Positions 2,272 through 28,120 are shown, counted from the stretch's first letter. The stretch is DNA of 64,000 bases from an uncultured Alphaproteobacteria bacterium (GCA_963735465.1 CAVTLA010000002.1:426069-490068), one strand, 5' to 3'. The notes: generated by a model from the letters alone, not told the origin. A program made the numbers and translations.

Positions 2272-3939
2272 GTGTCACCCGACGGGAACGTCAGGAGCGG
2301 ATTGACCGGTGTGAGACGCCAGATCGTAGCGATCGTCGACGATCGCATCACGAATCTAAAGATTCTGGAGCGGCTGGCCACGTCGCTCAATGACAGCGTC
2401 GTGGTCAAGACGTTCGATAGCCCGCTGTCGGCGCTGGAGTTCGCCGCCAAGCAGGAACCTGATATCGTCATCACCGATTTCAAGATGCCGGAGCTCGACG
2501 GCGCCGAGTTCATCCGCCGCTTCCGCGCGCTGGAGAACTGCATCGACGTCCCCGTCATGGTGATCACCGCCTACGAGGACAAGGACCTGCGCTACCGCGC
2601 GCTGGAGGCCGGCGCCACCGACTACCTGCTGAGCCCGGTCGACCACCACGAGTTCCGCGTCCGCTCGCACAATCTTCTGATGCTGCGGCGCCAGCAGCTC
2701 CTGCTCAAGGAGCGCGCCACCTCCCTCGAGGAGCGCATGATCGAGGAGGAGCGCCGGCACCAGGACGAGCTGCGCCACAGCCACGAGCTGCTGCTCAGGG
2801 TGATCGACGCGGTGCCGGTCCGGGTCAGCGCCACCGACCGCAACGGCCGCTTCGTCTTCGCCAACGACTGCTTCGCCCGGGCGATGAACCGTCCGGTGCA
2901 GGCGATCATCGGCAATACCCTGGCCGAGCTGCAGCCCGGCGAGGAGACCGACGCCGCGATGGAGCTGGACCGCAGCCTGATCGCCGGCGAGACCAAGCCC
3001 GCCGCCTTCGAGGTCGACGTCACCGACCCCGGCGGCGAGCAGATGGTGCTGCTGACCAACAAGGCGGTGCTGGACGACGACGTGGGCCGGCCGATGCTGG
3101 TGGTGACCGTCTCCCTCGACATCACCGACCGCAAGAACGCCGAGCTGGCCGTGCTTGCCGCCAAGGAGGTGGCCGAGCTCGCCAATCACAGCAAGACCGA
3201 GTTCCTGGCCAACATGAGCCACGAACTCCGCACGCCGCTCAACGCCATCATCGGGTTCTCCCAGCTGATGGCCGACGAGGTTCTGGGACCGCTCGGCAAC
3301 GCCAAGTACACCGGCTATGCCCGCGACATCTGCAACAGCGCCGAGCATCTCCTCGGCATCATCAACGACATCCTCGACGTCTCGAAGCTGGAAGCCGGCA
3401 AGTTCGAGCTCGAGGAGGAGATGATCGACATCACGCAGATCACCCGCAATCTCCTGCATTTCGTCGCCGATCGCGCCAGCGCGCTCGAGGTCACGATCGA
3501 GACCGACATCGAGAACGACCTGCCGCGCCTGCGCGCCGACGCGCGCAAGCTGAAACAGATCCTCCTCAATCTGGTCACCAACGCGCTCAAGTTCAGCCAG
3601 CCCGGCAGCCGCGTCACGCTGCGTGCCCGCACCCACAACGGCGCCATCATCCTCGAGGTGGTCGATCGCGGCATCGGCATGGACGAGACGGAAGTGACGA
3701 CGGCGATCACCCGGTTCGGTCAGGTGGCGAGCACCTGGAACCGCAAGCACGCCGGCACCGGCCTCGGCCTGCCGCTGGCGATCGGCCTGGTGGAGCTGCA
3801 CGACGGCAAGCTCGAGATCAGAAGCCGCAAGGGCGAGGGCACCACGGTGACCGTTACTTTCCCTGCGGAGCGCTCTGGCCCGCACGAAGCGATGCGCGCG
3901 GCGGAGCAGCATGCTCCGGACCCCGCCTCCGCGCCCTGA
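2272..3939 (+). CDS. soluble sensor histidine kinase with N-terminal receiver: REC-PAS-HisKA-HATPase_c
   Basis: REC: [30 protein letters not shown]. This is followed by a coiled coil and a PAS region ([25 protein letters not shown]). H-box: [42 protein letters not shown]-boxes: [14 protein letters not shown]. No TM segment. The start (GTG 2272) is uncertain. Confidence 0.85.
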
Positions 3940-3975
3940 GCAAATCCCGATAGCCGATCAGAGGGCAATGGACCC

Positions 3976-6744
3976 GTGATCGAGCACCGGACGTCACCGG
4001 CACAGGAGCCTCTGGACCCGACGATGCGGCGACGCAGCGTGCTGGTGGTCCTGACCCTGACCTTCGTCGCGATCTTCTCCCCGGGCTTCCTCGTGGTGGT
4101 GCTGTGGGGCCAGCACGAGGCGCCGCTCTTCCCGCTGAACGGCCTGCCCCTGGTGGCGGCGCTGGCGCTCGGCGCGGTCGCCTGCGGGATCACCGCGCTC
4201 TGGCGCGGCCTGGACACCCTCACCCGGGCCTTCTCCGCACGCGCGGATACCGAGCACGAGCAGATCATCATCCGGGTGATCTTCGTCAGCATCGTCTTCG
4301 ACTACAGCCTCGCGGCGATGAATTTCCAGCCCGGCGACGGCGGCACCGCCAAGGCCGCCTTCGCCATGGGAATCGGCGTCGCGGTGAGCTGGGTCTTCCT
4401 GCTGCACCTGATGGTGCGGCCGGGCCAGATGCCGTTGCGCCGCCTGCTCGCCATGCTGGCCGACCTCGGCTTCCTCTCGGCCTACATGCATTTCGGCGGC
4501 GGCGCCGCGGCCGCCTGGTACGGCATCTACCTCTGGGTCGGCATCGGCAACGGCCTGCGCTACGGCCTCAAGCCGCTGGTGCAGTCGACGGTGGTGGGCG
4601 TGGCGAGCTTCGCCGCCGTCATCGCCACTACGCCATTCTGGAACCAGCACCTGCCGCTCTCGGGCGGCCTCGTCTTCGCCCTCGTGGTGCTGCCGGCCTA
4701 TCTCACCTCGCTGATCCGCAACCTCACCGAGGCGAAGGCCCAGGCTGAGGAGGCGAACGCCGCCAAGAGCCGCTTCCTCGCCATCATGAGCCATGAGCTG
4801 CGCACGCCGCTCAACGCCATGATCGGCCTCGACGCGATCCTGCGCCGCACCCGCCTCGACGCGCGCCAGCGCGACATGCTGGCGACGATGAACTCGTCGG
4901 CGCGGGCACTCCTCACCCTCATCAACGATATCCTCGACATCTCCAAGATCGAGGCCGGCAAGTTCGCGCCGACGGTGGAATCCTTCGATCTCCATCAGGT
5001 GATGAACGGAACCCTCGCCATGCTGCGCCCGCAGGCGACGGCGAAGGACCTCCGGCTCGACTACCGCATCGATCCGGAGCTGCCCTTCGCGCTGCGCGGC
5101 TGGCCGCACCAGCTGCGCCAGATCGTCACCAACCTGGTGGCGAACGCGATCAAGTTCACCGACAAGGGCCGCATCTCCGTGGTGCTGGACGTGATTGCCG
5201 TCGATCCCACCAAGGCGGCATTCAGCCTGGCGGTGCGCGACGAGGGCATCGGCGTGCCGGCGGAGGCCCAGGAAAAGATCTTCGACCTCTTCACCCAGGC
5301 CGACGGCGCGGTGACCCGGCGCTACGGCGGCACCGGGCTCGGCCTCGCCATCGTGAAGCAGCTGGTGGAGCTCATGGGCGGCAACGTCGCGCTCACCAGC
5401 GCGCCGGGCAAGGGCAGCACCTTCACGGTGGAGCTGGTGTTCGCCCGCGAGCCCGAGCCGATGCCGGACAGCTTCGACCTGCGCGGCCATACGGTGCTGG
5501 CGGTGACCGACGACGCGGAATTCGCGGCGTGGCTGCGCGGCAATATCGAGCGCTGGCACGGCACGCTCCGCGCCTTCAAGGACGTGGCGGCGGCGACGCA
5601 GTTCATCGCCAACCGCCCGCCCGACGACACGCGCCCGATCCTGCTCGTCGACGGGCGGCGCGATCCCGTCGACGCGCTGGGCGCCGCCTCCCGCGCCGGC
5701 GGCACCGGGCCGGAGCCGATGACCCTGCTGCTGGCGGACGGCGACCACATCAATTCGCTGGCGACACTGGCGGGCGGCCGCGTGAGCTCGCTGCTGCGGG
5801 CGCCGATCGACGACATGCGGCTGGTGCGCGCGCTCCATGCGCTGCCGACGCCGGAGTCCGGCGCTCCCGCCGGCGAGGACGGCCGCACCGCCTCCAGCGG
5901 CGACATCACGCCGACGCGGCGGCCGCTCAAGATCCTGCTCGCCGAGGACAACGCGCCCAACCGCATGATCATCCAGCGCATCCTCGAGCTCGGCGGCCAT
6001 TCCGTCCTCACCGCGAGCGACGGCGAGGAAGCGCTGCAGATCCTGGATCAGCCCGGCATCGACCTCGTCCTCATGGACATCAACATGCCCGAGCTTTCCG
6101 GCTATGAGGCGGCGAAGCTCTATCGCATGGCGCACACCGACGGCCCGCGCCTGCCGATCCTGGCGCTCACCGCCGACGCCACCAGCCAGACCGAGCGTCT
6201 TTGCCGCGACGCCGGGATGGACGGCGTGCTCACCAAGCCGATCGAGGCGGCGCATCTCCTCGCCACCCTCGAATCGATCGCCGAGCGCATCTCGGCCGGC
6301 CAGGCGATCGACCCGCTGCCGCCGGTGGGGCCGCCGCCCAACGTGGTCACGCCCATCGCCCAGCATCCGCGCTACGGCGCCGAGACCGGCGCGGTGCTGG
6401 ACGACGCGGCGGTGGAGGCGTTGAAGGCGCTGGGCGCCGGCAGCGATTTCTTCAACGACGTGATCGAGAACTTCCGCTCCGACGTGCGCGAGATCCTGGA
6501 CCAGATGGCGCGCGCCGCGGCCAAGCGCGACCTGCGCGCCTTCCGCGATCACGCGCATTCACTGCGCAGCAGCGCCGCCCATATCGGCGCGGTGCGCTTC
6601 TACCGCACGCTCTTCGCGCTCAGGGATCTGACCGCCCAGCAGCTCGACAAGGACGGCAACGCGCTTCTGGAGAAACTCCGGGGCGAATACACCAAGCTCG
6701 ACGCGGCTCTGCGCCAGCAGGCGCAGGAAGCCCGTCGAGTGTGA
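3976..6744 (+). CDS. rpfC: RpfC-like membrane hybrid histidine kinase (multi-TM input, HisKA, HATPase_c, receiver-like insert, REC, HPt)
   Basis: About 8 hydrophobic helices lie in aa 20-245. A TEHEQ box precedes the bundle and WVGIGNGLRYG lies inside it, matching my recollection of the Xanthomonas RpfC input domain. Other blocks: H-box [19 protein letters not shown] (His about aa 273), GTGLGLAIV, REC KILLAEDN..LVLMDINMP..ALTA..KP (Asp about aa 701), and HPt RDHAHSLRSSAAHIGA (His about aa 861). The start (GTG 3976 or ATG 4024) is uncertain. Confidence 0.7.
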   Translation: MIEHRTSPAQEPLDPTMRRRSVLVVLTLTFVAIFSPGFLVVVLWGQHEAPLFPLNGLPLVAALALGAVACGITALWRGLDTLTRAFSARADTEHEQIIIRVIFVSIVFDYSLAAMNFQPGDGGTAKAAFAMGIGVAVSWVFLLHLMVRPGQMPLRRLLAMLADLGFLSAYMHFGGGAAAAWYGIYLWVGIGNGLRYGLKPLVQSTVVGVASFAAVIATTPFWNQHLPLSGGLVFALVVLPAYLTSLIRNLTEAKAQAEEANAAKSRFLAIMSHELRTPLNAMIGLDAILRRTRLDARQRDMLATMNSSARALLTLINDILDISKIEAGKFAPTVESFDLHQVMNGTLAMLRPQATAKDLRLDYRIDPELPFALRGWPHQLRQIVTNLVANAIKFTDKGRISVVLDVIAVDPTKAAFSLAVRDEGIGVPAEAQEKIFDLFTQADGAVTRRYGGTGLGLAIVKQLVELMGGNVALTSAPGKGSTFTVELVFAREPEPMPDSFDLRGHTVLAVTDDAEFAAWLRGNIERWHGTLRAFKDVAAATQFIANRPPDDTRPILLVDGRRDPVDALGAASRAGGTGPEPMTLLLADGDHINSLATLAGGRVSSLLRAPIDDMRLVRALHALPTPESGAPAGEDGRTASSGDITPTRRPLKILLAEDNAPNRMIIQRILELGGHSVLTASDGEEALQILDQPGIDLVLMDINMPELSGYEAAKLYRMAHTDGPRLPILALTADATSQTERLCRDAGMDGVLTKPIEAAHLLATLESIAERISAGQAIDPLPPVGPPPNVVTPIAQHPRYGAETGAVLDDAAVEALKALGAGSDFFNDVIENFRSDVREILDQMARAAAKRDLRAFRDHAHSLRSSAAHIGAVRFYRTLFALRDLTAQQLDKDGNALLEKLRGEYTKLDAALRQQAQEARRV

Positions 6745-6753
6745 CGCCGCCGC

Positions 6754-7740
6754 TTACTCGGCGGCTTCGGCGCCGACGCGGTTGCGGCGGCGATCCTGGG
6801 CGCTCACCAGGCGGGCCATCTTGCGCAGGTCCGCTTCCGCCAGTCCCAGCGCCGTATCGACCCAGCTCACGGCGATATCCATGAGCTCGTCGATCTTGAT
6901 GGGATTGACGCGGTCGCGGGCGCGGAAGATGGCGCGATGGGCGGCGTGGCGGCGGCCGCTGCGGCCGATGTACTCATAGAGCGCCTCGGTGCCGCAGCCG
7001 TCGTCGGCGAGCACGTCGACGACGCCCATCTGGTAGAGCTCCTCGGCGGTGTAGAGCCGGCCGCTGGTGATCATGCGCTCAGCCTGGGCCGGCGCGATGC
7101 GGCGCACGAGATAGCTGTAGGCGCCCATGCCGGGGAACAGATTGAACAGGATCTCCGGCAGGCCGAACTTGGCGCTGCGCTCGGCGATGATGAGGTTGGA
7201 CGAGAGCGCCGCCTCGAAGCCGCCGCCCAGCGCGTCGCCGCGCACCAGGGACACCGTGATGATCGGCAGGTTGAGGTTGGTGGCGTTGGCGTAGCCTTCC
7301 TCCACCACCGCGCGGGCATAGCGCAGCAGCCCGTCGCGATCCTGACGCCGGATCAGCGTCGCGAAGAGATCGAGATCGCCGCCGAGGTTCCACACCTGGG
7401 GCATCCGGGAATCCCACACGATGTATTTGACCGGCGACGTGCCGGCGCCCGCGGCGAACAGCGTGCGCACCATGTCCTGCACGCGCTGAATGTCGCGCAG
7501 CAGCGCCGGCGTGAAGCTGGGCCGGCCCTGGAAATGGAAGTACGCGAACAGCACGCCTTCGTTGCCGTCGAACACCACGTCCATTTCCTCGAACGGGATC
7601 GCGCCGATCCGGGCCTCGACGGTCGAGACGCTGATCTCGCCCCTTGTATTGGGGACGGCATTATCCGATCGGGTGGGGTTGAGGGTCGGCAGAGGGATGG
7701 AAGTTCTGCCGAGTTCTACTAATTGGATCTGCGCGCTCAT
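6754..7740 (-). CDS. rpfF: RpfF-like DSF-family signal synthase (crotonase-fold enoyl-ACP dehydratase/thioesterase)
   Basis: 328 aa. These blocks occur in the same order as in my recollection of X. campestris RpfF, including both catalytic Glu positions: WNLGGDLDLF, RGDALGGGFEAALSS, FGLPEILFNLFPGMGAYSYL, VSWVDTALGL and RLVSAQDRR. It has roughly 35-40 extra N-terminal residues. Confidence 0.75.
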   Translation of the reverse strand: MSAQIQLVELGRTSIPLPTLNPTRSDNAVPNTRGEISVSTVEARIGAIPFEEMDVVFDGNEGVLFAYFHFQGRPSFTPALLRDIQRVQDMVRTLFAAGAGTSPVKYIVWDSRMPQVWNLGGDLDLFATLIRRQDRDGLLRYARAVVEEGYANATNLNLPIITVSLVRGDALGGGFEAALSSNLIIAERSAKFGLPEILFNLFPGMGAYSYLVRRIAPAQAERMITSGRLYTAEELYQMGVVDVLADDGCGTEALYEYIGRSGRRHAAHRAIFRARDRVNPIKIDELMDIAVSWVDTALGLAEADLRKMARLVSAQDRRRNRVGAEAAE

Positions 7741-8245
7741 GTCAGAAGGTTCCCCTGGTCTGCCGGGACCGCCCGAACCGGGCCCCCGATCTGGAACTGC
7801 GCCAGTCGTTTTCTCTTACGAAAACTCTAAGGCACCTACCGGCTTTTCATCTAGCAATATTTCGTTAACCACTTGAGATCGTTCACGTAGTTTTAACGAG
7901 TGTTAACAATGCTTGTAATAGGTGAAGAATCCACTAGTAACCACCATACCTATGCCATACGCCCATATTCGGAGCCGGTTTCGACGGCACCCGGCGCGGC
8001 GCGGCTTGGGGGTATCCCCCCTAAATAGGTATAAACAGTAACTTCCACCAGACGGTTGAGATTCCGCCACGGCTGCGACCTCCAAGCGGGTGATCTCAAT
8101 CGCACACTGCCGCGTCACGTCTCCGCGACCGTCGCATCGGTTGAATTCCCAAGCGTCCATCGAAAGCAAATACCCGGCGCGAGCGCGCTCCGTACGCGCG
8201 AACGCACTTCGCTTTTTCTCGCACCGACGTTCACGGCGCAAACTT
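7741..8245. promoter_or_regulatory. long intergenic region with a markedly AT-rich core (about 7840-8050); presumed rpfF-like promoter/leader
   Basis: About 0.5 kb without a credible ORF. It contains TGTTAACA, CGTTAAC and TTTTAACG motifs at 7863-7910 and stands out against the GC-rich background. Confidence 0.5.
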
Positions 8246-8276
8246 CGCCGCGGGGCCGCGTGTCCGCGGCGTTTTT
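8246..8276 (+). terminator. intrinsic-terminator-like hairpin oriented for the plus strand
   Basis: CGCCGCGG (8246-8253) pairs with CCGCGGCG (8264-8271) and is followed by TTTTT (8272-8276). The minus-strand reading has no U-tract after the stem. Confidence 0.5.
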
Positions 8277-8286
8277 CGCCTGTCGG

Positions 8287-10426: not shown

Positions 10427-12301
10427 TCAGTGCATCCGCTTGCGCGCGGGCGACGAGGCGCCGGTGCGGGTGGGCGCGTCCTCGTCGAAGAGCTCGGCGA
10501 GCTTCTCCAGCATGGTGCCTCCGAGCTGCTCGGCGTCGACGATGGTGACGGCGCGGCGGTAATAGCGGGTCACGTCGTGGCCGATGCCGATCGCCACCAG
10601 CTCCACCGGCGAGCGGTGCTCGATCTCCTCGATCACCTGGCGCAGGTGCTTCTCCAGGTAGTTGCCGGGATTGACCGAGAGCGTGCTGTCGTCGACCGGC
10701 GCGCCGTCCGAGATCACCATCAGGATCCGGCGCTGCTCGTTGCGGGCGATCAGGCGGTTGTGCGCCCAGAGCAGCGCCTCGCCGTCGATGTTCTCCTTGA
10801 GGATGCCCTCGCGCAGCATCAGGCCGAGGCTGCGCCGGGCGCGGCGCCACGGTGCGTCCGCGGGCTTGTAGACGATGTGGCGGAGATCGTTGAGGCGGCC
10901 GGGATTCGGCGACTTGCCGGCGCCGATCCATTGCTCGCGGGACTGCCCGCCCTTCCAGGCGCGCGTCGTGAACCCCAGGATCTCCACCTTGACGCCGCAG
11001 CGCTCGAGCGTGCGCGCGAGGATGTCGGCGCTCATCGCCGCCACCGTGATCGGCCGCCCGCGCATGGAGCCGGAGTTGTCGATCAGCAGCGACACCACCG
11101 TATCGCGGAAGTCGGTCTCCAGCTCGCGCTTGTAGGAGAGCGGAAAGGTGGGATTGACCACCACGCGGGAGAGCCGCGCGGGATCGAGGATGCCTTCCTC
11201 GAGATCGAACTCCCAGGCCCGCGTCTGCTTGGCGAGGAGACGGCGCTGCAGGCGATTGGCGAGGCGCGCGATCACGCTCTGGAGATGGGCGATCTGCTGG
11301 TCGAGGAGACCGCGGAGCCGCGTCAGCTCCTCGGGATCGCAGAGCTCGTTGGCGTCGACGATCTCATCGTACTGCGCGGTGAAGGCGCGATAGGCCGTGG
11401 GATCGTCGGATCCCGCGGAATTGCGCGGCATGACGCCGGGGCGGCCCGGACGGCCGGGATCCTCGTCGCCGGCGCCGGGCATCAGCTCGCCCTGCACCTC
11501 GTCGGCGCCGGAGGGATCGCCGTCCTCCTCCTGGCCCTCGGGGATGCCGGCCTCGAGCGCGCTCTGGGCGCCGGACACGGAACCGTCGCCGGCCTCGCTC
11601 TGGCTCTCGGCGTCGGCGGCATCGTCGCCCTCGCCCTCCTTGTCGTCGCTCTCGCCGGAGGCGTCGGTGTCGCCGAGATCGAGATCGAGATCCTGGATCA
11701 GCTTGCGCGCCGCCTTGGCGTAGCCGTCCTGATCGGCGATGTGGCGATCGAGCTCGAGAATGTCGCGGCCGATCCGGCCCTCGAGCCAGGGACGCCACAG
11801 CTCCACCAGCTTCTGCGCCGCCGGCGGCGGCGGCGCGCCCGTGAGCTGCTCGCGGGCCAGCAGCCGCACCGCGTCGGCCAGCGTGCTCTCGTTGCGCTCG
11901 GAGAGGCGGTCGTAGCCCTGGCGGCGGTAGCGCGCCTCCAGCATGGCGGCGAGATTGCCGGCGACGCCGGCCATGTTCTTGACACCGAGCGCCTCGACTC
12001 GCGCCTGCTCCACGCCCTCGAAGACCGCGCGCGCCATCTCGCCTTGCGGCGCCCGGCGGGCATGCACCGCCGCGTCATGATGCCTGAGGCGAAGCGCCAG
12101 CGCATCGGCGGCGCCGCGCACCTGGGCCGCTTCCTGCTGGGAGAGATCGCGGGGCGGCGTCGGCAGGCGCGCGCGCGGACCGGCGAGGCCCGGCGGCTCG
12201 GGTCCGTAGCTCACGGTCACGTCGTCGCGCTCGGCGATCGCCCGCAAGGTGGCGGTCGTCGAGCGCTTGAAGATCTCGATAGGTGACGGCGGCTCGGCCA
12301 T
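10427..12301 (-). CDS. cobT: cobaltochelatase subunit CobT (VWA domain protein)
   Basis: 624 aa. N-terminus: [19 protein letters not shown]. It has an acidic low-complexity middle and a C-terminal VWA block ([16 protein letters not shown]). Confidence 0.9.
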
Positions 12302-12316
12302 CGTCGGCGTCCCCGC

Positions 12317-13321
12317 TCAGACCAGCGTCGCCTGGACCCCGGTCTCCTTGAGCTCGGTGCCGAAGCAGCGCTGGTAGTATTCCGCCACCGTCGGCCGCTC
12401 CAGCTCGTCGCACTTGTTCAGGAAGGTGAGGCGGAAGGCGAAGGAGATGTCGTTGAAGATGCGCGCGTTCTCCGCCCAGGTGATCACCGTGCGCGGCGAC
12501 ATGACGGTGGAGATGTCGCCGTTGATGAAGCCGGAGCGGGTGAGATCCGCCAGCGCCACCATGGCGCTGACGGTGCGGCGGCCATCCTCGTTGTCGTAGG
12601 TCGGCGCCTTCGCCAGCACAATTTCCACCTCGGCGTCGTGGGGCAGATAGTTGAGGGTCGCCACGATGTTCCAGCGGTCCATCTGGCCCTGGTTGATCTG
12701 CTGCGTGCCGTGATAGAGGCCGCTGGTGTCGCCGAGCCCCACCGTGTTGGCGGTGGAGAACAGGCGGAACGCCGGGTGCGGGCGGATGACGCGGTTCTGG
12801 TCGAGGAGGGTGAGCTTGCCTTCGACCTCGAGGACGCGCTGGATCACGAACATGACGTCGGGCCGTCCGGCGTCGTACTCGTCGAAGACAAGCGCCGTCG
12901 GATGCTGCAGCGCCCAGGGCAGCAGGCCCTCGCGGAACTCGGTCACCTGGCGCCCCTCGCGCAGCACGATCGCGTCCTTGCCGACGAGATCGATGCGGCT
13001 GATATGGCTGTCGAGATTGACGCGGATGCAGGGCCAGTTGAGGCGCGCCGCCACCTGCTCGATGTGGGTCGACTTGCCGGTGCCGTGATAGCCCTGGATC
13101 ATGACGCGGCGGTTGTAGGCGAAGCCCGCCAGGATCGCGAGCGTCGTGTCGCGGTCGAAGCGATAGGCCTCGTCGAGATCAGGGACGTGCTCGCTGGAGC
13201 TGCTGAAGGCGGGCACCTGCAGATCGGAATCGATACCGAAGGTCTGCCGGACCGAGACCGTGATGTCGGGGAGCCCGGCCGACGCATCCGCCGAGCCGTT
13301 GGAAGTCTGAGCCGAAGTCAT
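12317..13321 (-). CDS. cobS: cobaltochelatase subunit CobS (MoxR-like AAA+ ATPase)
   Basis: 334 aa from ATG 13321 (MTSAQTS..). Walker A: GYHGTGKST. Other blocks: [14 protein letters not shown] and FRLFSTANT. The upstream part of the 460-aa track ORF was rejected. Confidence 0.9.
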
Positions 13322-13374
13322 CGGAATGAACGAGTCCTTGAGCGAGGGGGAAAGGGGTGGTGGATCGTCTGGCC

Positions 13375-13935
13375 TCAGGTGCCGGGGAAGTAGCTGGCCT
13401 TCAGGGTCGCGTAGGCTTGGTTGATCACTTTGAGTTTCTCCTCCGCCGCCTTGTCCCCGCCGTGGGCGTCGGGATGGTGGCGTTTCACGAGTTCCTTGTA
13501 GCGGGCCTTGACCGCTCTGAAGGTCAGCGGCGGCGTCAGTTCGAAGACCGCCAGGGCCTCTTCCTCCGCCGTCAGCGGACGCTTGCGCTCCCGCGGCCGC
13601 GTGCTGGTGTCGTCCACATCGAAGAGCCCGTCGTCGCGCCAGCGTGGCTCGAAGCGAGCGCCGATGCGGCTGCCGAGCGGCCAGGTCGGTCGCTGCCAAA
13701 CGGTATCGGAGCGGATCTCCGCCTCGATCTCCGCCTCGCTCATCCCGGCATAGTAATTCCAGGCGGCGTTATAGGCGCGCACGTGATCGAGGCAGAACCA
13801 GTAGAAGGCATCGAGCTCCGACTTGGAGCGTGGCGCACGGAAGTCCCCCGCCGCCGCGCAACCGGGATGGTCGCAGGGTCTGAGCGCGGGATTTTCCGCG
13901 GAACGCGCCGTCAATTCGATCGAAAAAGACCGCAT
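13375..13935 (-). CDS. J-domain protein (DnaJ-class co-chaperone with C-terminal J domain)
   Basis: 186 aa from ATG 13935 (MRSFSIE..). It has a Cys-rich [16 protein letters not shown] block and a C-terminal J domain ([16 protein letters not shown]). Confidence 0.8.
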
Positions 13936-22927: not shown

Positions 22928-23611
22928 CTACGTGATCTCCGGCACCCGGAGGCTGTAGCCGGCGCCGCGCACGGTGTGGAGAAGCGGCGGCGCGAAGTCG
23001 CGGTCGATCTTCTGCCGGAGCCGGCTCACGTGCACGTCGATCACGTTGGTCTGGGGATCGAAATGATGATCCCAGACCTTCTCCAGCAGCATCGTCCGCG
23101 TGACGATGTGCCCGGCGTTGCGCATGAGATATTCCAGCAGCCGGAATTCCCGCGGCAGCAGATCGATCTCGCAGCCGGCGCGCGTCACCGTGCGCTTGAG
23201 GAGATCCATCTCGAGATCCGCCACCTTGAGGCGGGTCTCGCTGACGGAATGGCTGCGCCGGTTGAGCGCCTCGAGCCGTGCCAGCAGCTCCGACAGCGCG
23301 AAGGGTTTCGAGAGATAGTCGTCGCAGCCGGCGCGCAAGCCCTCGACCCGGTTGTCGACATCGCCGAGGGCGCTCAGGATCAGCACCGGCGTCTCGTCCT
23401 TGCGCGCGCGCAGCTCGGCCAGGATCGAGAGCCCGTCGAGGCCCGGCAGCATGCGGTCGATCACCATGGCATCGAAGCTGCCGCTGGTGGCGTGGGCGAG
23501 GCCGAGACGGCCGTCCGCCGCGACGTCCACCTGGTGCCCGCTCTCGGTCAGGCCCTTGAGGAGATATGCGGCGGCCTCGTCGTCGTCTTCGATCAGCAGA
23601 ATTTTCATCAT
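22928..23611 (-). CDS. OmpR-family response regulator (REC + winged-helix DNA-binding)
   Basis: 227 aa. Blocks: KILLIEDD, MVIDRMLPGLDG, LILSA, SKPF, then LLPREFRLLEYL..VWD..NVIDVHVSRLRQKI. Confidence 0.9.
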   Translation of the reverse strand: MMKILLIEDDDEAAAYLLKGLTESGHQVDVAADGRLGLAHATSGSFDAMVIDRMLPGLDGLSILAELRARKDETPVLILSALGDVDNRVEGLRAGCDDYLSKPFALSELLARLEALNRRSHSVSETRLKVADLEMDLLKRTVTRAGCEIDLLPREFRLLEYLMRNAGHIVTRTMLLEKVWDHHFDPQTNVIDVHVSRLRQKIDRDFAPPLLHTVRGAGYSLRVPEIT

Positions 23612-23679: not shown

Positions 23680-25245
23680 TCAGCCGTTGTCGGATTGGCC
23701 CGACCACGCGACGAAGGCGTTGATGCCGTGGCGGTTGATCTGCAGCAGCAGGTTCTTGTCGTGACCGGACTCCGCCGCCTTGAGCTTGGCGGCGGCCTCC
23801 TGAGTCGTGGTGACCGGCTGCTGGTTGACCGAGACGATGACGTCACCGGCCTGCAGATCGACGTCGGCGAGCGGGCTCGAGTCCGCGATCGCGCTCACGA
23901 CGACGCCCTTGACGTGCCCGGGTACCTTGAGCTGCTTGCGCAGATCGGGGGTCAGCGCCTGCAGCTTGAGGCCGAGGGCGCTCGCCCGCTCCGGCTTCGC
24001 GCTGGGCTCCGGCTCGTTGGCGGCGAGCTTCTCCAGGTTCGCCGGCTGCTCGACGATCGTGGTGTTGAGCGTCGTCTCCTGGCCCTGGCGGCGCACCAGC
24101 ACCTTGGCGCTGGTGCCGACCGGAGTCTCCGCGACCATGATCGGAAGATCGCGCAGCTTGGCGATGGCGTGACCGTTGAAGCTCTCGATCACGTCACCCT
24201 GCTTGAAGCCGGCCTTCTCCGCCGGGCTGCTCTTGGTCACGTCGGCGACGAGCGCGCCCTGGTCGTTGGCAAGGCCGAGGCTCTTGGCGATCGCCGGCGT
24301 CACTTCCTGGATCTGCACGCCGAGCCAGCCGCGGCTCACCTTGCCGTGCTCGCGGAGCTGGTCGAGAACGGGCTTCGCGAGATTCGAGGGAATGGCGAAG
24401 CCGATGCCGACGCTGCCGCCGTTCGGCGAGTAGATCGCGGTGTTGATGCCGATGACCTCGCCCTTCAGGTTGAAGGTCGGGCCGCCGGAATTGCCGCGAT
24501 TGATCGGGGCGTCGATCTGCAGGAAGTTGTCGTAGGGGCCGGAATGAATGTCGCGGCCCTGGGCCGAGACGATGCCGGCGCTGACGGTGCCGCCGAGGCC
24601 GAAGGGATTGCCGACCGCGACCACCCAGTCGCCGACCTGCTCGGCGCCGCTGTCGCCGAAGGCGACGTAGGGCAGCGGCTTGCCGCCATTGTCGATCTTG
24701 AGGAGGGCGAGGTCGGTCTTGGTATCGCGGCCGACGATCTTGGCGACGTGCTTGCTGTCGTCCTGCAGGATCACCGTCACCTTCTCGGAGCCGTCGATCA
24801 CGTGGTTGTTGGTGACGACATAGCCCTGGGGATCGACGATGAAGCCGGAGCCGAGCGCCATCCGCTGCGCGTGCTGCTGCGGCTGTCCGGGCTGGCCAGG
24901 GTTGATGCCCTGCTGCTCAAAGAATTTGCGCAGGAAGTCGTCGAAGGGCGTGCCTTGCGGAAGATTGGGCACCTGGCCCGGCGAGGCGTCTTCGCTGTCG
25001 TCGGCGGTCTGGTCGTCGGCGCCGGCCTTCTCCACGACGGAGACATTGACGACCGCCGGCAGCACTTTCTTGGTGAGCGGCGCGAGGCTCGGCATCTGGA
25101 CGAGATTGGTGCTGGAAGCCGCGTCCTCGGCGCGGGCATAGGGGGCCAGCACGAGGGCCAGCCCCAGTCCCGCGGCGAGGACCGCGGTGCGCGTTCCGGC
25201 GTTGCCGCGTATCTGTGGCGAACGCGCGAGTAGAAGGTTGGTCAT
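23680..25245 (-). CDS. degP: DegP/HtrA-family periplasmic serine endoprotease with two PDZ domains
   Basis: 521 aa. It has a signal peptide. Blocks: GSGFIVDPQGYVVTNNHV, TDLALLK, INRGNSGGP, then two PDZ-like regions. Confidence 0.92.
   Translation of the reverse strand: MTNLLLARSPQIRGNAGTRTAVLAAGLGLALVLAPYARAEDAASSTNLVQMPSLAPLTKKVLPAVVNVSVVEKAGADDQTADDSEDASPGQVPNLPQGTPFDDFLRKFFEQQGINPGQPGQPQQHAQRMALGSGFIVDPQGYVVTNNHVIDGSEKVTVILQDDSKHVAKIVGRDTKTDLALLKIDNGGKPLPYVAFGDSGAEQVGDWVVAVGNPFGLGGTVSAGIVSAQGRDIHSGPYDNFLQIDAPINRGNSGGPTFNLKGEVIGINTAIYSPNGGSVGIGFAIPSNLAKPVLDQLREHGKVSRGWLGVQIQEVTPAIAKSLGLANDQGALVADVTKSSPAEKAGFKQGDVIESFNGHAIAKLRDLPIMVAETPVGTSAKVLVRRQGQETTLNTTIVEQPANLEKLAANEPEPSAKPERASALGLKLQALTPDLRKQLKVPGHVKGVVVSAIADSSPLADVDLQAGDVIVSVNQQPVTTTQEAAAKLKAAESGHDKNLLLQINRHGINAFVAWSGQSDNG

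Positions 25246-25432: not shown

Positions 25433-28120
<2,688 letters not shown>

Follow-up and report, generated by a model that had tools for sequence, protein, structure and literature searches.

A synthase-sensor cassette related to rpfF-rpfC, with a receiver-bearing histidine kinase in the rpfG position, in an uncultured alphaproteobacterium

Signaling by diffusible signal factor (DSF)-family fatty acids has been worked out almost wholly in the Xanthomonadaceae and Burkholderia, where its output is the turnover of cyclic di-GMP (c-di-GMP). The receiver (REC) of RpfG is the established acceptor of the histidine phosphotransfer (HPt) domain of the sensor RpfC, and in Xanthomonas it switches on an HD-GYP c-di-GMP phosphodiesterase. 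We analyzed a stretch of 64,000 nt, one strand, from an uncultured Alphaproteobacteria soil bacterium (GCA_963735465.1, CAVTLA010000002.1:426069-490068; the window), in which three genes at 2272-7740 encode relatives of the DSF synthase RpfF and of RpfC and, in the position of rpfG, a receiver joined to a PAS domain and a histidine kinase (Table 1). We consider it somewhat probable that the three form one fatty-acid quorum-sensing cassette, sharing a common ancestor with the Xanthomonas rpfG-(rpfH)-rpfC / rpfF locus, that relays to a second kinase. A scan of one genome per species returned more than 551 loci with relatives. Among the best 80, from which all family counts below are taken, a synthase, a convergent RpfC-type sensor and a receiver-bearing partner upstream of the sensor occur together in 52, a co-occurrence for which the original prediction, made from the sequence of the window, had proposed a survey.

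In the Xanthomonas reference locus (L081), rpfB and rpfF lie on one strand and rpfC, rpfH and rpfG on the other, with rpfF and rpfC convergent across an 11-nt gap; in Lysobacter (L083) the layout is the same except that rpfH is missing, and the gap is 51 nt. The original prediction had the sensor gene preceded, 36 nt away and on the same strand, by a gene for a REC-PAS-kinase, and followed after 9 nt by a convergent synthase gene; these coordinates and gaps proved exact, and the arrangement is conserved in related loci. Its description of the convergence as non-canonical fails, as both reference loci are convergent too. A motif scan of the whole 64 kb bears out its statement that the window holds no HD-GYP gene, and found no GGDEF or EAL motif inside any called gene. 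Its parallel statement about RpfB holds for the genes flanking the cassette, to which domain scanning beyond the cassette itself was limited and among which Pfam detected no RpfB-type acyl-CoA ligase. Because the fraction of G or C at third codon positions (GC3) is 0.86-0.93 in all three cassette genes, in a window of 65-72% GC, we take the three open reading frames (ORFs) to be real genes.

Table 1. Features of the cassette and of the adjoining non-coding region, in positions of the window
Feature	Coordinates	Strand	Basis or remark
REC-PAS_4-HisKA-HATPase protein, 555 aa, rpfG position	2272..3939	+	Pfam; 36 nt upstream of sensor gene
RpfG-type receiver and linker helix (aa 19-175)	2326..2796	+	Alignment to RpfG receivers
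PAS_4 domain (aa 179-288)	2806..3135	+	Pfam PAS_4, 57.5 bits
HisKA-HATPase kinase core (H317)	3190..3870	+	Pfam; H, N, G1 and G2 boxes conserved
RpfC-type hybrid sensor kinase, 922 aa	3976..6744	+	BLASTP against RpfC; Pfam
Lineage-specific N-terminal extension, two extra hydrophobic helices (aa 22-38, 59-75)	3976..4215	+	Hydropathy scan
RpfC/RpfH-type multi-pass membrane input (aa 82-250)	4219..4725	+	Alignment to RpfC and RpfH
DSF-sensor box R89-A-D91-T92-E93-H-E-Q96	4240..4263	+	Aligned to RpfC R15, D17, S18, E19, Q22
Putative pseudo-receiver between HATPase and true REC (aa ~506-622)	5491..5841	+	Profile-profile match to REC
True receiver of sensor (aa 653-765, acceptor D701)	5932..6270	+	Pfam Response_reg, 83.6 bits
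HPt domain of sensor (aa 829-910, H861)	6460..6705	+	Pfam Hpt, 34.9 bits
RpfF-clade crotonase, 328 aa, putative DSF-family signal synthase	6754..7740	-	NF006452, PDB matches, catalytic Glu pair
Catalytic Glu196	7153-7155	-	Aligned to RpfF E161
Catalytic Glu176	7213-7215	-	Aligned to RpfF E141
Non-coding region upstream of synthase gene	7741..8286		546 nt; no convincing ORF

The synthase and the sensor

Pfam identifies the 328-aa protein as a crotonase (ECH_1, 80.4 bits; cut-off 27) and does so only through the generic families ECH_1 and ECH_2, as might an ordinary beta-oxidation enoyl-CoA hydratase lying by chance beside two unrelated histidine kinases. This explanation is effectively refuted, and we give it almost no credence. 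The four best matches among PDB sequences are all RpfF-type (7zq7, 186-187 bits; 3m6m, 177 bits; 6dgn, 158-159 bits; 5fus, 158 bits); the next crotonase scores 56 bits, so that all crotonases outside this group fall more than 100 bits below the RpfF structures. Of these, 3m6m is RpfF of Xanthomonas campestris (Xcc), 6dgn is Cronobacter RpfF and 5fus is Burkholderia Bcam0581. The clade-specific NCBIfam model NF006452 recognizes the protein with 345 bits (cut-off 177), compared with 422, 400 and 396 bits for the known RpfF proteins of Xanthomonas, Lysobacter and Cronobacter. In addition, the three-gene linkage of the 52 loci extends over many families, with no conserved fatty-acid-oxidation neighbors. 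By these matches the 328-aa protein is an RpfF-clade crotonase, grouped with the characterized DSF synthases and not with the beta-oxidation hydratases, which was the first check proposed in the original prediction.

The active site is conserved accordingly. Glu176 and Glu196 align with E141 and E161 of Xcc RpfF, its catalytic pair, and both are invariant in an alignment of 14 sequences. The same is true of the blocks NLGGDL, ALGGGFEAALS, GLPE.LF.LFPGMGAYS, WVDTA and RLV.AQ.RR, which the original prediction had matched to RpfF together with the two Glu positions and which all align with 3m6m. Overall identity to Xcc RpfF is 44%, and, unlike the Xcc protein, the synthase has a variable N-terminal extension, about 45 aa long. 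The RpfF equivalog model NF053515 scores the protein at 224 bits, below its cut-off of 550; Lysobacter RpfF (512 bits) and Cronobacter RpfF (185 bits) fail it as well. The model is narrow, and failure therefore excludes a Xanthomonas-type orthologue, not a DSF synthase. Its cut-off leaves out Lysobacter RpfF despite the canonical rpfB-rpfF / rpfC-rpfG locus of that genus, and with this cut-off annotation pipelines will label most DSF synthases only "crotonase family protein"; the JGI label for relatives of the synthase is "DSF synthase".

The 922-aa protein consists, in order, of an N-terminal transmembrane extension, an RpfC/RpfH-type membrane input, HisKA, HATPase, a candidate pseudo-receiver, REC and HPt. 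Pfam detects HisKA, HATPase, REC and HPt and gives no match in the N-terminal region. Our reference is the 726-aa Xanthomonas RpfC of the canonical rpf locus, reached through a search with Xcc RpfF. With BLASTP, aa 82-499 of the sensor align contiguously with RpfC 8-424 (40% identity, E = 7e-90); for the REC-HPt part, identity is 29% (E = 7e-32). The input by itself (aa 82-255) matches RpfC 1-185 with 35% identity over 173 aa (101 bits, E = 3.6e-32), Lysobacter RpfC with 99 bits and RpfH with 90 bits; shuffling the RpfC segment lowers the score to 13 +/- 3.6 bits, with a maximum of 21. A word-indexed search with the membrane input returned five close fragments only and no RpfC. The input motifs named in the original prediction, which had also called for this comparison, align directly: RADTEHEQ with RADSEHAQ and WVGIGNGLRYG with WVTIGNGLRYG of Xanthomonas RpfC. 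The latter corresponds to a pattern, W-x-x-x-G-N-G-F/L-R-F/Y-G, that is nearly invariant in 54 family members.

Residues R15, D17, S18, E19 and Q22 of RpfC are essential for DSF detection, and the S18T variant is functional (Cai et al., PMC5391125). All five positions are kept in the sensor (R89, D91, T92, E93 and Q96), with the tolerated Thr at S18. Across the 54 family sequences these columns hold R in 42, D in 45, S or T in 38, E in 51 and Q in 30 (M in 15). The relay residues H273, D701, K754 and H861 are kept in 52-54 of the 54, with D701 and K754 each present in 53 and H861 in 52. The REC domain aligns with that of RpfC, including PDB 3m6m_D, the RpfC REC (79 bits). From these alignments the 922-aa protein is an RpfC-type sensor kinase, predicted to bind a DSF-family acid. 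PDB, NCBIfam and RpfC comparisons thus agree with the original prediction that the pair is an RpfF-clade synthase and an RpfC-type sensor.

The 328-aa protein would make a cis-2-unsaturated fatty acid of the DSF family. A different lipid, made or sensed or both, or a crotonase acting mainly as an acyl-ACP thioesterase that sets free ordinary fatty acids, with the system reporting membrane or lipid status in place of cell density, is in our judgment quite improbable. The 44% identity to Xcc RpfF, the failed NF053515 cut-off (224 against 550 bits), the variable N-terminal extension and the lack of a linked RpfB-type turnover enzyme are all compatible with it. Against it stand the retention of the catalytic Glu pair with its surrounding motif blocks, the conserved DSF-contact residues of the sensor, and the NF053515 scores of other RpfF proteins, since that of Cronobacter, which has been studied experimentally, scores lower still and that of Lysobacter fails too.

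Two parts of the sensor lie outside the alignment to RpfC. Between HATPase and REC lies an insert of some 120 aa that occurs in nearly all alpha-clade orthologues (occupancy 0.94-0.99), is poorly conserved, and is not found in the 726-aa Xanthomonas RpfC. A PDB sequence search with a 156-aa segment covering the insert gave no match. By hhalign its profile matches the family REC profile (probability 95.8%, E = 8e-9, 113 columns); the Asp of the acceptor position is present in 41 of 54 sequences, and the Thr and Lys are not conserved. We read the insert as a probable pseudo-receiver. The N-terminal extension is found in a minority of orthologues (mean occupancy 0.17-0.50 over three 25-residue blocks) and not in Xanthomonas RpfC; because its GC3 is 0.97-1.0 from nt 4030 on, we regard it as coding. 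A crude hydropathy and positive-inside analysis of aa 1-250 (3976-4725) places the N-terminus inside, followed by the two extra helices, and the R89-Q96 box in the cytoplasm; loops with 0-1 Lys/Arg alternate with loops carrying 3-5. The N-terminus of Xanthomonas RpfC is itself rich in Lys/Arg. In the published RpfC model the DSF box is "putatively" periplasmic (PMC5391125). Through its two extra helices, this sensor could serve to test independently on which side of the membrane the DSF-binding box lies, a disputed point.

The partner in the rpfG position

Beyond what the original prediction contained, the REC-PAS-kinase occupies the position of rpfG and carries an RpfG-type receiver. It is aligned with Xanthomonas RpfG at 34% identity over 193 aa comprising the receiver and linker helix (E = 9e-30), after which the two proteins diverge; identity to Xanthomonas and Lysobacter RpfG is 34-39%. 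Against the true REC-HD-GYP RpfG of locus L061, identity is 49% over aa 19-158, and homology ends in the linker helix. When the receiver was searched against all ORFs of the roughly 1.4 Mb of fetched loci, its orthologues came first, followed by three Xanthomonadaceae RpfG receivers (104-111 bits), and the next matches scored about 48 bits and lower. Pfam finds PAS_4, HisKA and HATPase_c in the 555-aa protein and no HD domain, so that it is not an RpfG; it has no GGDEF or EAL domain either, as an RpfR would.

The same architecture is found in the same position in 14 further loci. These 15 kinase-type proteins show little or no variation at DD23-24, D69, T99 and H317. As judged from sequence, the real difference from rpf is an exchange of output domain, in which the c-di-GMP-degrading domain of RpfG is replaced by a PAS-histidine kinase.

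From homology, residue conservation, gene order and the conservation of the cassette across loci, we infer the following signal chemistry, direction of phosphate flow and final target. The RpfF-clade crotonase would make a DSF-family acid from an acyl carrier, and the RpfC-type membrane input of the 922-aa kinase would detect it. The sensor would autophosphorylate at H273; from there the phosphate would move by way of D701 to H861 of its HPt domain, which would transfer it to the RpfG-type receiver (D69) of the 555-aa protein, encoded on the same transcript. Phosphorylation of the receiver would gate the PAS-HisKA-HATPase portion, and this second kinase, possibly also reading a cue bound by its PAS domain, would phosphorylate a response regulator encoded elsewhere.

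Between the partner (3160-3939) and the sensor (4720-5460), the kinase cores are 39% identical over 238 aa. We considered a local duplication and do not claim one, as this identity is too ordinary among HisKA kinases; it may reflect either an old local duplication or the usual similarity within the HisKA family. A PDB sequence search with the partner PAS domain (E <= 1) returned five weak matches, none named RpfR, and direct binding of the signal by this domain is possible though unsupported.

Output domains and setting of the cassette across related loci

The best 80 loci are mostly from Alphaproteobacteria, including Stellaceae, Skermanella, Inquilinus, Gluconacetobacter, Rhizobium, Aureimonas, Chelatococcus, Methylopila and others. 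We had entertained the possibility that all 52 partners are REC-PAS-kinases, which Pfam rules out by showing REC-PAS-GGDEF-EAL proteins as the largest group (27-28 loci; Rhizobium, Gluconacetobacter, Aureimonas and others). Most alphaproteobacterial relatives thus carry this protein in the rpfG slot and not a kinase, a point beyond the original prediction. REC-PAS-HisKA-HATPase partners are encoded in 15 loci including the window, all others being metagenome-assembled genomes (MAGs), and a REC-HisKA-HATPase partner without PAS in one (L056). Two cultured Skermanella species have a REC-PAS-HisKA_2 partner, and REC-HD-GYP partners occur in four gamma- or zetaproteobacterial loci (L027, L051, L061 and L066) as well as in the Xanthomonadaceae reference loci. 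The synthases of these four fall within the same RpfF clade.

The receiver appears to have kept company with the synthase across these types. Over 53 loci, receiver identity rises and falls with synthase identity (Spearman 0.50), and none of 999 Mantel permutations gave a value as high; the relation also holds for pairs of loci with different output domains. Mean receiver identity is 56% between the kinase and GGDEF-EAL types and 59-64% within a type. Given this similarity across types, we conclude that the receiver stayed with the cassette while its output was exchanged. In a neighbor-joining synthase tree the window falls in a 10-member clade (71% bootstrap) in which every visible partner has a kinase output.

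A wider interpretation can be drawn from this pattern, which we hold tentatively, as falling a little short of probable. DSF-type quorum sensing would here be uncoupled from c-di-GMP, with a two-tier kinase cascade working as an AND gate for an extracellular fatty acid and an intracellular cue and acting on an unlinked response regulator. As part of the same interpretation, held just as tentatively, the RpfG-type receiver would be a portable adaptor plugged into at least four outputs (HD-GYP, GGDEF-EAL, HisKA and HisKA_2).

Several findings weigh against a relay from an RpfC-type sensor through an RpfG-type receiver. No locus examined has a response regulator cognate to the second kinase in linkage with the cassette. 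The best PDB match of the partner receiver is the first receiver of PleD (80 bits by phmmer), about as similar as the RpfG receivers, so that the assignment as RpfG-type rests partly on position and co-evolution. The conserved receiver Lys (KP motif) is Ser121 (nt 2632-2634) in the 555-aa protein. Apart from two exceptions, the PAS-type partners, both kinase and GGDEF-EAL, have Ser or Thr at this position, and true RpfG keeps the Lys; phosphorylation of the partner receiver may thus be atypical. The sensor has a pseudo-receiver and two extra helices that RpfC does not have. The RpfF tree was built by neighbor-joining only, with weak support (52%) for the split between alpha and gamma sequences, and the signal molecule of this clade is putative, assigned from homology. 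The change from Lys to Ser/Thr coincides with acquisition of the PAS domain.

Some of these points would suit a different wiring of the same synthase and sensor, in which the REC-PAS-kinase is a parallel or upstream input. Its kinase would be driven by a PAS cue, possibly the fatty acid itself, as reported for RpfS, and would feed the REC or HPt of the sensor or drain phosphate through its own receiver, in a GacS/RetS-style network acting on an unlinked regulator. The missing receiver Lys and the lack of a linked output regulator are in line with such an arrangement, and the 39% identity of the two kinase cores is compatible with cross-talk. In RpfS, a soluble kinase, the PAS_4 domain is reported to bind DSF (PMC5391125), and the partner PAS is of the PAS_4 type too, although its PDB sequence search gave no chain named RpfR. 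We nevertheless consider this wiring unlikely. The receiver is orthologous to that of RpfG by sequence, position and co-evolution, and in sister loci the same receiver stands before HD-GYP or GGDEF-EAL domains, where it can only be an acceptor. The relay to a second kinase remains our preferred reading.

No further conserved neighbor (HD-GYP, FadD/RpfB or response regulator) emerged from all-against-all clustering of the 80 loci, whose other neighbor clusters are antisense shadow ORFs, and only 2 of the 80 have RpfB-like matches. In Skermanella stibiiresistens SB22 (L003, 2649-4232, minus strand) and S. aerolata KACC 11604 (L011, 2611-4161, minus strand), the synthase gene has the gene for the REC-PAS-HisKA_2 partner, with its RpfG-type receiver, on its other side. 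In three Sphingomonadales MAGs (L072, L075 and L076) and Chelatococcus albus (L042) the synthase is convergent with a GGDEF-EAL protein of 673-787 aa, encoded about 0.9-3.5 kb downstream of the synthase gene and bearing a PAS domain as well in L042. No RpfC-type sensor is present at these four loci. Because of this absence and the convergent GGDEF-EAL gene, their wiring resembles that of RpfR in Burkholderia and Cronobacter.

The closest synthases are 93-98% identical and come from metagenome contigs; the taxon-named ones belong to Stellaceae, order Rhodospirillales, in keeping with the alphaproteobacterial setting first proposed. In a 95%-identical relative (L084) the cassette is bounded by the same genes as in the window: those for FAA-hydrolase and HpcH-lyase at one end, and those for cyclase, dienelactone hydrolase, CobT, CobS and BolA at the other. 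At 11007-13905 of that locus the gene call for the sensor is a fragment of 576 aa, overlapped by a call on the opposite strand, probably through frameshift errors of long-read metagenome assembly rather than as a real pseudogene.

The 546-nt region upstream of the synthase gene is unusually long for a non-coding stretch and, by eye, AT-richer than its surroundings. It is presumed to be the promoter or regulatory region of the synthase gene; a promoter scan of it found one weak sigma-70-like site, no more than expected by chance. A GC-rich hairpin followed by a T-run lies at 8246-8271, just past the end of the cyclase gene. Rfam gave no match. The only other receiver protein found in the window is an OmpR-type response regulator (22928-23611, minus strand), which adjoins a DegP-like protease (23680-25245) and SecA (25433-28120) and has no evident link to the cassette.

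Comparison with known signaling systems

The synthase and sensor belong to known families, and the cassette is a widespread, apparently uncharacterized version of a known system. Homologues are abundant, and the literature searched, which lay mostly outside subscription journals, holds neither a characterized alphaproteobacterial RpfF/RpfC system nor a description of the output swap, in line with the original prediction, which knew of no characterized DSF system in the class. An RpfC-RpfG pair in alpha-proteobacteria has been reported from KEGG taxonomy data (PMC8895600). The synthase-sensor core is widespread in Alphaproteobacteria, with many soil- and plant-associated genera among its carriers, and across the cassette family the receiver of the regulator has been joined anew to different outputs. 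If the relay is correct, the kinase-output version would show that a cascade consisting purely of phosphorylation steps can be driven by fatty-acid quorum sensing. Cultured carriers are at hand for the kinase output (S. stibiiresistens and S. aerolata) and the GGDEF-EAL output (Rhizobium spp., Gluconacetobacter liquefaciens and Aureimonas altamirensis).

PA1396 of Pseudomonas aeruginosa and BCAM0227 of Burkholderia cenocepacia are presumably orphans with no linked synthase gene, unlike the window sensor. Both are said to resemble it as hybrid kinases with an RpfC-type membrane input that respond to DSF-family acids (PMC6536496). RpfS of X. campestris is by description a soluble PAS_4 histidine kinase in the DSF circuit, as the window partner may be (PMC5391125); we compare the two by domain type only, and RpfS is not encoded in the rpfG slot.

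The RpfF-RpfR systems of B. cenocepacia and Cronobacter turicensis share the synthase clade (6dgn and 5fus, 158 bits; NF006452) and the convergence of the synthase gene with a receptor gene, there encoding a PAS-GGDEF-EAL receptor for the Burkholderia DSF (BDSF). They differ in having no membrane RpfC-type sensor, and RpfR binds the signal through its PAS domain and has no receiver. The apparently uncharacterized REC-PAS-GGDEF-EAL cassettes, for example those of Rhizobium sp. FY34 (L054), G. liquefaciens (L071) and A. altamirensis (L050), have the same synthase, a sensor with pseudo-receiver, a REC-PAS_4 front half and the change from Lys to Ser. Their output is c-di-GMP turnover by GGDEF-EAL, whereas that of the window is a histidine kinase.

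Like the rpf locus of Xanthomonas, the window has a synthase gene convergent with the sensor gene; its product belongs to the same clade of crotonases and keeps the catalytic Glu pair. Immediately upstream of the sensor gene, and on its strand, lies a gene for a protein with a receiver. The sensor shares with RpfC the membrane input with its five DSF-sensing residues and the HisKA-HATPase-REC-HPt relay, and the receiver and linker helix of the partner are homologous to those of RpfG. The differences are a synthase N-terminal extension of about 45 aa, the addition to the sensor of a pseudo-receiver and, in this lineage, two N-terminal helices, the Ser in place of the conserved receiver Lys, and the lack of a linked rpfB or rpfH. 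Above all, the partner output is PAS-HisKA-HATPase in the window and HD-GYP in RpfG.

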